In this document: piece by piece, positions 17,948-18,960 of the stretch
Numbering within the stretch: the first letter of the stretch is position 1
Layout: each line of letters begins with the position of its first letter
Source of the DNA: Escherichia coli
GTDB lineage: Bacteria; Pseudomonadota; Gammaproteobacteria; Enterobacterales; Enterobacteriaceae
Assembly: GCF_003790525.1 (NCBI RefSeq)
Contig: NZ_CP033635.1
Strand: one strand, 5' to 3'
DNA length: 64,000 nt
The notes under the pieces: generated by a model
Database searches by the model: none
Told to the model about the DNA's origin: nothing
The model's input: only the letters and a program-made list of their open reading frames with translations
Translations under genes and position numbers: made by a program

Positions 17948-18960
17948 TTAAAATAGCATTTGAGTCAAATAGCCCATCAAGATAGCCATACCTAATATAA
18001 CCGTCAGGAATGCAACTATCATCGGTATTCTGAACATTGATTTAAGTAATATCACTTCCGTCAGGCTTGCGCCGGCACTGCCGATGATTAATGCCATTAA
18101 TGCTCCCAGACCCATTCCTTTTGTCATCAAAACAGATGCCAGAGGGATAACTGCCTCTGCCCGGATATATAGCGGAATACCAACAACGGCGCTCAATGGG
18201 ATGGCGAAGGGATTATCTGCCCCTGCATGAGCGGCAATCCACTCTGAGGGAATAAAGCCATAAATAAAAGAGCCTATTAATACCCCTAACAAAGATATGG
18301 CAGTACATCTTTAAACTGTTGCAACGCATCTTTGGTGGCTAGTTTTATGGGATTAATACTTACCACAGCTTTGGTATTGCAACAGTTAACTACGGGTTTC
18401 TCAATGGCTTTAGCCGTTGGACTACAGCAACTCACTTCTATTGGCGTATATGTCGTCCCCGGCGAAGTTTTGGCTGGAGCACAACAATTTGCTGATGAGC
18501 TTTTACTGGCAATGATATGACGTTCAAATCCCAGGGAATCCAGGATAATACTGGCAAGTACGGAGACGCCGGCGGCGATAATCGCGTACAACAAGGTAAC
18601 TTTCCAGCCAAAGGTCACCCACATTAACCCGACGATAATGGGATTAAGTAATGGGGAAACAAATAAAAAAGTGAGGGTCGGACCAAACCCGGCTTTCGCT
18701 GATAACAATCCACGTAACATGGGGATTGTCGAGCAACTACAGAACGGGGTAACGGCTCCCAACAGAGCAGCCAGGAGATAACCTCTCCCTTTTCTGGCCC
18801 CCATCATCTGCTGGATTTTATGGTCTGGCACCTTTTGTCTTATCAGGCTGACACCGGCACTAATCACTATAAACAGCAAAGAAAGCTCGACGGCGAGAAA
18901 CACAAACATCTCTGCGGCATCTTGCAGCATCGCAAGCCAACTACTCATACGTAACCTCAT
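17948..18960 (-). pseudogene. putative permease, apparently frameshifted (two ORF fragments 18286..18960 and 17948..18292)
   Basis: The 224-aa N-terminal fragment (multi-TM, cysteine-rich loop CCAPAK...CCSPTAK...CCNTK) ends at TAG 18286; the 114-aa C-terminal fragment is open only from 6 codons upstream of a TTG, with no ATG or SD; 7-nt overlap is consistent with a single-base indel. Confidence 0.5.

Follow-up and report, generated by a model that had tools for sequence, protein, structure and literature searches.

Permeases of the ArsP family (TC 2.A.119) are composed of two sets of four transmembrane segments (TMS) connected by a central loop, a 4+4 topology, and members of the superfamily that consist of a single four-TMS repeat exist as well (PMC7176098). 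The ArsP protein of C. jejuni is, as summarized in a review, an exporter of methylarsenite, MAs(III), and trivalent roxarsone, not of inorganic arsenite (Chen et al., 2015, cited via PMC6205960). According to the same review, arsP genes form two distinct clades with possibly different functions, and ArsH is an oxidase of trivalent organoarsenicals (PMC6205960).

In Escherichia coli, an ArsP_1-family permease is found in strain SMS-3-5 as WP_000100281.1 (locus ECSMS35_RS19165), which appears in other sources as 'uncharacterized membrane protein YraQ (UPF0718 family)'. The gene studied here has the same nucleotides as the SMS-3-5 gene except for a single T, and its product with this base restored consists of a single full-length Pfam ArsP_1 domain (PF03773; residues 9-330 of 333, E = 1.5e-52), the alignment of which covers model positions 3-293 of 294 and assigns the protein to the ArsP family. 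Kyte-Doolittle hydropathy peaks in the N-terminal half at residues 15-33, 57-75, 93-111 and 117-135 are followed by a hydrophilic, Cys-rich central loop (residues ~140-212) and by C-terminal peaks at 215-233, ~250-270, ~271-302 and 308-326, which are resolved less clearly but agree with a set of four helices; by this hydropathy estimate, the topology is 4+4 with a central hydrophilic loop.

The E. coli permease resembles C. jejuni ArsP by family (Pfam ArsP_1), by layout (4+4 TMS with a central hydrophilic loop) and by context (ars genes and an ArsR-type regulator), while it differs by the three Cys-Cys pairs of its loop at residues 155/156, 174/175 and 189/190 (ANCCAP, VSCCSP and VNCCNT; 18400-18530, minus strand). 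The Cys-rich loop may act as a binding loop for soft metals or metalloids. Family membership and gene neighbourhood lead us to infer that the E. coli protein, when intact, probably exports thiol-reactive trivalent (organo)arsenicals and is controlled by the neighbouring ArsR-type repressor. Homology to the SO_0444 family and to SaoE of the same superfamily is detectable, but far below the equivalog cutoffs, and both assignments were rejected (SO_0444 Cu/Zn efflux transporter, NF033936, 109.9 bits versus a cutoff of 300, E = 1.5e-31; SaoE, NF040736, 86.3 bits versus a cutoff of 325, E = 2.3e-24). Among solved structures, none was found to be related by sequence to the restored permease.

A paralogous module of permease and regulator is located on ~630 enterobacterial plasmids, mostly conjugative Escherichia or Salmonella plasmids, as exemplified by p14EC029c (NZ_CP024144.1; L023, 3334-5707). 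Its permease (WP_058650130.1, 377 aa) is intact, with one continuous frame through ...DVLPYLLL..., and 75% identical to the chromosomal permease, whereby the membrane halves are much more conserved than the loop, which is 44 aa longer in the plasmid protein. The plasmid regulator is 92% identical to the chromosomal ArsR/SmtB regulator and the divergent arrangement is common to both modules, but the plasmid pair is followed by arsH, unlike the chromosomal pair, which is located beside arsRBC. This suggests that the plasmid module may be a mobile organoarsenical-resistance cassette. Between the chromosomal and plasmid copies, the central loop (residues ~150-195) is the most variable part, yet it is Cys-rich in both.

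The window, that is, the entire stretch of 64 kb (64,000 nucleotides of E. coli contig NZ_CP033635.1) that was analysed, represents the chromosomal mdtF–gadE–hde–chu–slp–ars–gor–uspA–pitA–rbbA–nik–zntA region, as placed by a megablast search of 5,426 complete E. coli genomes, and corresponds in reverse complement to SMS-3-5 (NC_010498.1) from ~3,817,487 to 3,881,485. Over the 64 kb the two sequences are 99.995% identical with exactly three differences (Table 1). The neighbours of the permease gene likewise match those in SMS-3-5, namely the yhiS-like hypothetical gene, the ArsR/SmtB regulator (NCBIfam NF033788, 61.7 bits versus a cutoff of 55) and arsCBR. The hypothetical protein between slp and the permease we take to be the product of yhiS, an IS-disrupted pseudogene in K-12.

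Table 1. Features of the permease locus, its neighbours and the differences between the window and E. coli SMS-3-5 (positions in the window).
Feature	Position	Strand	Remarks
Hypothetical protein between slp and permease	16145-17368	-	407 aa, intact; WP_000020632.1 in SMS-3-5
Entire disrupted permease gene	17948..18948	-	Orthologue of WP_000100281.1 'permease' (333 aa)
C-terminal permease fragment	17948..18292	-	114 aa from TTG; frame -1 relative to N-terminal fragment; TMS5-8
N-terminal permease fragment	18286..18960	-	224 aa (ATG at 18960) or 220 aa (RefSeq start, 18948)
Lesion	18291..18293	-	Plus strand A3 (coding T3); A4/T4 in all relatives examined
ArsR/SmtB-family metalloregulator	19055..19375	+	106 aa; intact, divergent from permease; C-terminal Cys-Cys pair ...REECCVN...
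Canonical arsenic operon arsR-arsB-arsC	19396..21531	-	Adjoins the permease/regulator pair; assigned from the ORFs and from what RefSeq annotates in the identical stretch of SMS-3-5
arsC	19396..19821	-	
arsB	19834..21123	-	
arsR	21178..21531	-	
Difference 1 from SMS-3-5	18291-18293/4		1-nt deletion
Difference 2 from SMS-3-5	~30214/30215		1-nt deletion
Difference 3 from SMS-3-5	43044		G-to-A substitution

At the permease locus, a preliminary description had proposed an apparent frameshift that splits one polytopic permease in two, and its account of the two open reading frames (ORFs) is borne out. The 224-aa ORF ends with ...FKDVLPYLC followed by TAG ('cta' on the plus strand at 18286-18288), the frame of the 114-aa ORF is open for six codons (RCTAIS) ahead of the TTG, none of which is ATG or GTG, and the two ORFs overlap by 7 nt (18286..18292). 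Their summed length of 338 aa is close to that of a single permease, the intact protein being 337 aa long when counted from the ATG of the 224-aa ORF and 333 aa long when counted from the RefSeq start. The proposed lack of a Shine-Dalgarno sequence before the TTG is equally confirmed, as the 20 nt upstream (AAAGATGTACTGCCATATCTTTG; AAAGATGTACTGCCATATC) contain neither a sequence of the GGAG/AGGA type nor a Shine-Dalgarno-like purine tract.

The single-base indel, which had been predicted to lie within a roughly 22-nt stretch, was located by alignment with orthologues inside the flagged region 18270-18300. Compared with E. coli SMS-3-5 and TCM3e1, CTTTTG on the coding strand is changed to CTTTG, so that exactly one T is missing from a T4 homopolymer, and the junction ...CCATATCTTTTGTTAGGGG... 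reads ...CCATATCTTTGTTAGGGG... in the window. The missing T is the sole difference from both strains in 1,501 bases (identity 1501/1502, one gap), and the T3 copy of the window is split into ORFs of 220/224 aa and 114 aa where SMS-3-5 possesses T4. With the T restored, the frame reads ...DVLPYLLLGVLIGSF... and the product is identical to WP_000100281.1 (333 aa); collinear intact orthologues exist and one indel restores a continuous ORF, as is characteristic of a frameshift pseudogene.

The break at residue 219/220 is located in the first turn of TMS5, so that repeat 1 together with the loop is in the N-terminal fragment and repeat 2 in the C-terminal one. Besides TMS1-4, the N-terminal fragment includes the Cys-rich central loop as well as a TPFCSCS motif; it terminates with PYLC-TAG. 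Cysteines of the TPFCSCS type are probably needed for MAs(III) transport by ArsP. Loss of the T changes the frame by -1 after Leu219 and adds one wrong residue (Cys) before the TAG, and TMS5-8 are stranded in the other frame behind a TTG without ribosome-binding site, the predicted product being truncated to four TMS.

As judged from the nucleotide sequence, the two ORFs are almost certainly the halves of one normally single gene that is interrupted by a simple frameshift, and the gene as written is a frameshift pseudogene, predicted to be unable to make the full-length transporter. The split arrangement is nothing new, being the frameshifted copy of a well-represented and already annotated E. 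coli ArsP_1-family gene. Consequences beyond annotation are of little importance. In the annotation, the pair of ORFs should appear as a single frameshifted gene rather than as separate proteins, either marked as a pseudogene or, in case the reads reveal T4, corrected.

The preliminary description had also considered that orthologues might display the same two-ORF arrangement or that homologues might naturally have a length of about 220 aa, and neither was found. A genuine two-gene system is rejected, as the orthologues examined are single ORFs, the best listed matches carry the extra base, the second ORF starts with TTG without a Shine-Dalgarno sequence and a split permease on a metagenome contig, described below, has a different cause. 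Naturally short homologues are rejected as well, with the chromosomal orthologues having 333/337 aa and the plasmid paralogue 377 aa, all continuous through ...DVLPYLLLGVLIG....

Searches for the deletion allele were negative throughout. An 81-nt probe across the lesion detected the locus in 2,048 complete E. coli genomes, with 0 exact matches, and the best 12 listed of the 2,048 probe matches all span 82 nt, i.e. the extra base is present. Conversely, the intact 82-mer, run as a control, was found exactly in 832 genomes, while in a spread sample of the non-exact genomes 14 of the 15 listed matches are 82 nt long with base substitutions only and the 15th is a partial match. Exact-pattern scans of JGI metagenomes gave 17 contigs with the intact allele and 0 with the deletion allele, and those of GTDB species representatives gave neither the deletion allele nor the intact allele (0 each), the latter scan being uninformative on the deletion because the representatives do not contain the exact sequence in either form.

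On the protein level, an exact look-up in a collection of ~15 billion proteins did not find the N-terminal fragment with either start, and the restored 333-aa protein is recorded on at least 1,000 contigs; some gene callers choose the upstream ATG to arrive at 337 aa. The 114-aa C-terminal fragment occurs once in this look-up, on a 2.3-kb ENA metagenome contig (L005; ERZ28627607 scaffold_3356) on which both permease fragments are tagged PF03773. The lesion on this contig (1500-1690) is different, though, as an AAA-to-TAA nonsense mutation, which is located seven codons 5' of the break in the window and leaves T4 intact, gives rise to calls of 212 aa and 114 aa. As the deletion is absent from all other sequences searched, the choice is between a very recent mutation of the isolate and an assembly error or other artefact, with the T4 run as a plausible site for either.

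All three differences of the window from SMS-3-5, two single-base deletions and one synonymous base substitution, are private, with 0 exact matches among 2,048, 5,403 and 5,411 complete E. coli genomes, respectively. The second deletion changes ATAGAGCC, which is not a homopolymer, to ATAGGCC between uspB and uspA, at a distance of ~124 nt upstream of uspB. The substitution exchanges one Leu codon for another (CTG to CTA) near the end of rbbA, six codons ahead of its stop and shortly before the start of the overlapping yhhJ. At least 14 independent assemblies of the same clone, SMS-3-5 included, tie on score over 6000-30999, which indicates their mutual identity there, and over 31000-55999 the clone mates differ, to judge from their scores, by no more than a few base substitutions, with the alignment length unchanged (exceptions: IS insertions, assembly LS45).

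We lean towards an artefact of sequencing, assembly or other origin, in which case the organism possesses the intact T4 run and a working permease and the base is missing only in the record. This reading is slightly favoured because the private differences are deletion-heavy and the site is a homopolymer. Of the three private differences in 64 kb, two are 1-nt deletions, as opposed to the substitutions at unchanged alignment length among the clone mates, and if indels make up ~10% of natural mutations (a rough figure of our own), at least two indels in three events are expected with P ~0.03. The allele was, furthermore, not found in the 2,048 complete genomes, in the JGI metagenomes with their 17 contigs carrying the intact allele or in the 15-billion-protein collection. 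On the other hand, three events provide weak statistics, some private mutations are expected in any isolate and a simple homopolymer-error model fails to cover both deletions, as the second one is outside a homopolymer. If the missing T is an error, it amounts together with the deletion at ~30215 to assembly indel errors at a rate of ~1 per 30 kb, which is relevant to pseudogene counts in this genome.

A genuine and very recent loss of function is a serious, if more tentative, possibility, with replication slippage in T4 inactivating an accessory arsenical permease that decays without selection in the current niche. The module is indeed accessory, being present in ~2,050 of 5,426 complete genomes (~38%), many fragments designated 'permease, partial' are found in the protein cluster and hicA, another frameshifted gene of the same window, is common to SMS-3-5. 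The AAA-to-TAA change on the ENA metagenome contig is an independent inactivating lesion in the same gene, although this nonsense variant may be an error itself. Against a genuine loss, the allele has been seen nowhere else, so that there is no sign of inheritance, and deletion-heavy private variants are atypical of natural E. coli micro-evolution. If the deletion is real, the isolate would have lost an accessory efflux permease, probably related to organoarsenicals, while arsRBC is kept.

That the split is functional, either through recoding (programmed -1 frameshifting or transcriptional slippage) or through two four-TMS halves that are made separately and assemble, is very unlikely. The break is positioned exactly at the boundary of central loop and TMS5, and the two ORFs jointly encode all residues of the 333-aa protein except for Leu220, which is replaced by Cys in the N-terminal fragment, with the TTG (Leu220) as initiator. 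Single-repeat four-TMS proteins do exist in the superfamily (PMC7176098), and the TTG precedes the stop codon by 4 nt, which would be geometrically compatible with coupling. These features contrast with the missing Shine-Dalgarno sequence before the TTG and with the finding that the arrangement is present in no relative examined, the chromosomal and plasmid homologues being single ORFs, so that evolutionary support is lacking.

Programmed -1 frameshifting and transcriptional slippage are rejected, as the zero-frame CCA UAU CUU UGU UAG is devoid of an X XXY YYZ slippery heptamer, a T-run of 3 is far too short for slippage of RNA polymerase, the shift is not conserved and Rfam detects no element at the site, its matches in 16000-31000 being restricted to two AgrB-family sRNAs. 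Production of the C-terminal half by termination-reinitiation at the TTG overlapping the TAG, with assembly of the half-proteins into a working 'split ArsP', is hardly credible, even if such a protein, were it real, would be a natural demonstration that a 4+4 transporter works as two polypeptides. Taken over all routes, a functional outcome of the deletion allele is at best highly improbable.

The two Rfam AgrB-family antisense sRNA genes (21681-21763 and 21914-21997, minus strand; 85 and 108 bits) are located in the arsR-gor intergenic region by dinQ, where they form a ~135-nt direct repeat of 83% identity. Elsewhere in the window, hicA, which encodes the toxin of the hicAB pair (44262-44536, plus strand), consists of two overlapping ORFs, 44262..44360 and 44306..44536. 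This split is annotated as 'frameshifted' in SMS-3-5 too and is thus common to both sequences, unlike the frameshift in the permease gene, which is private to the window.
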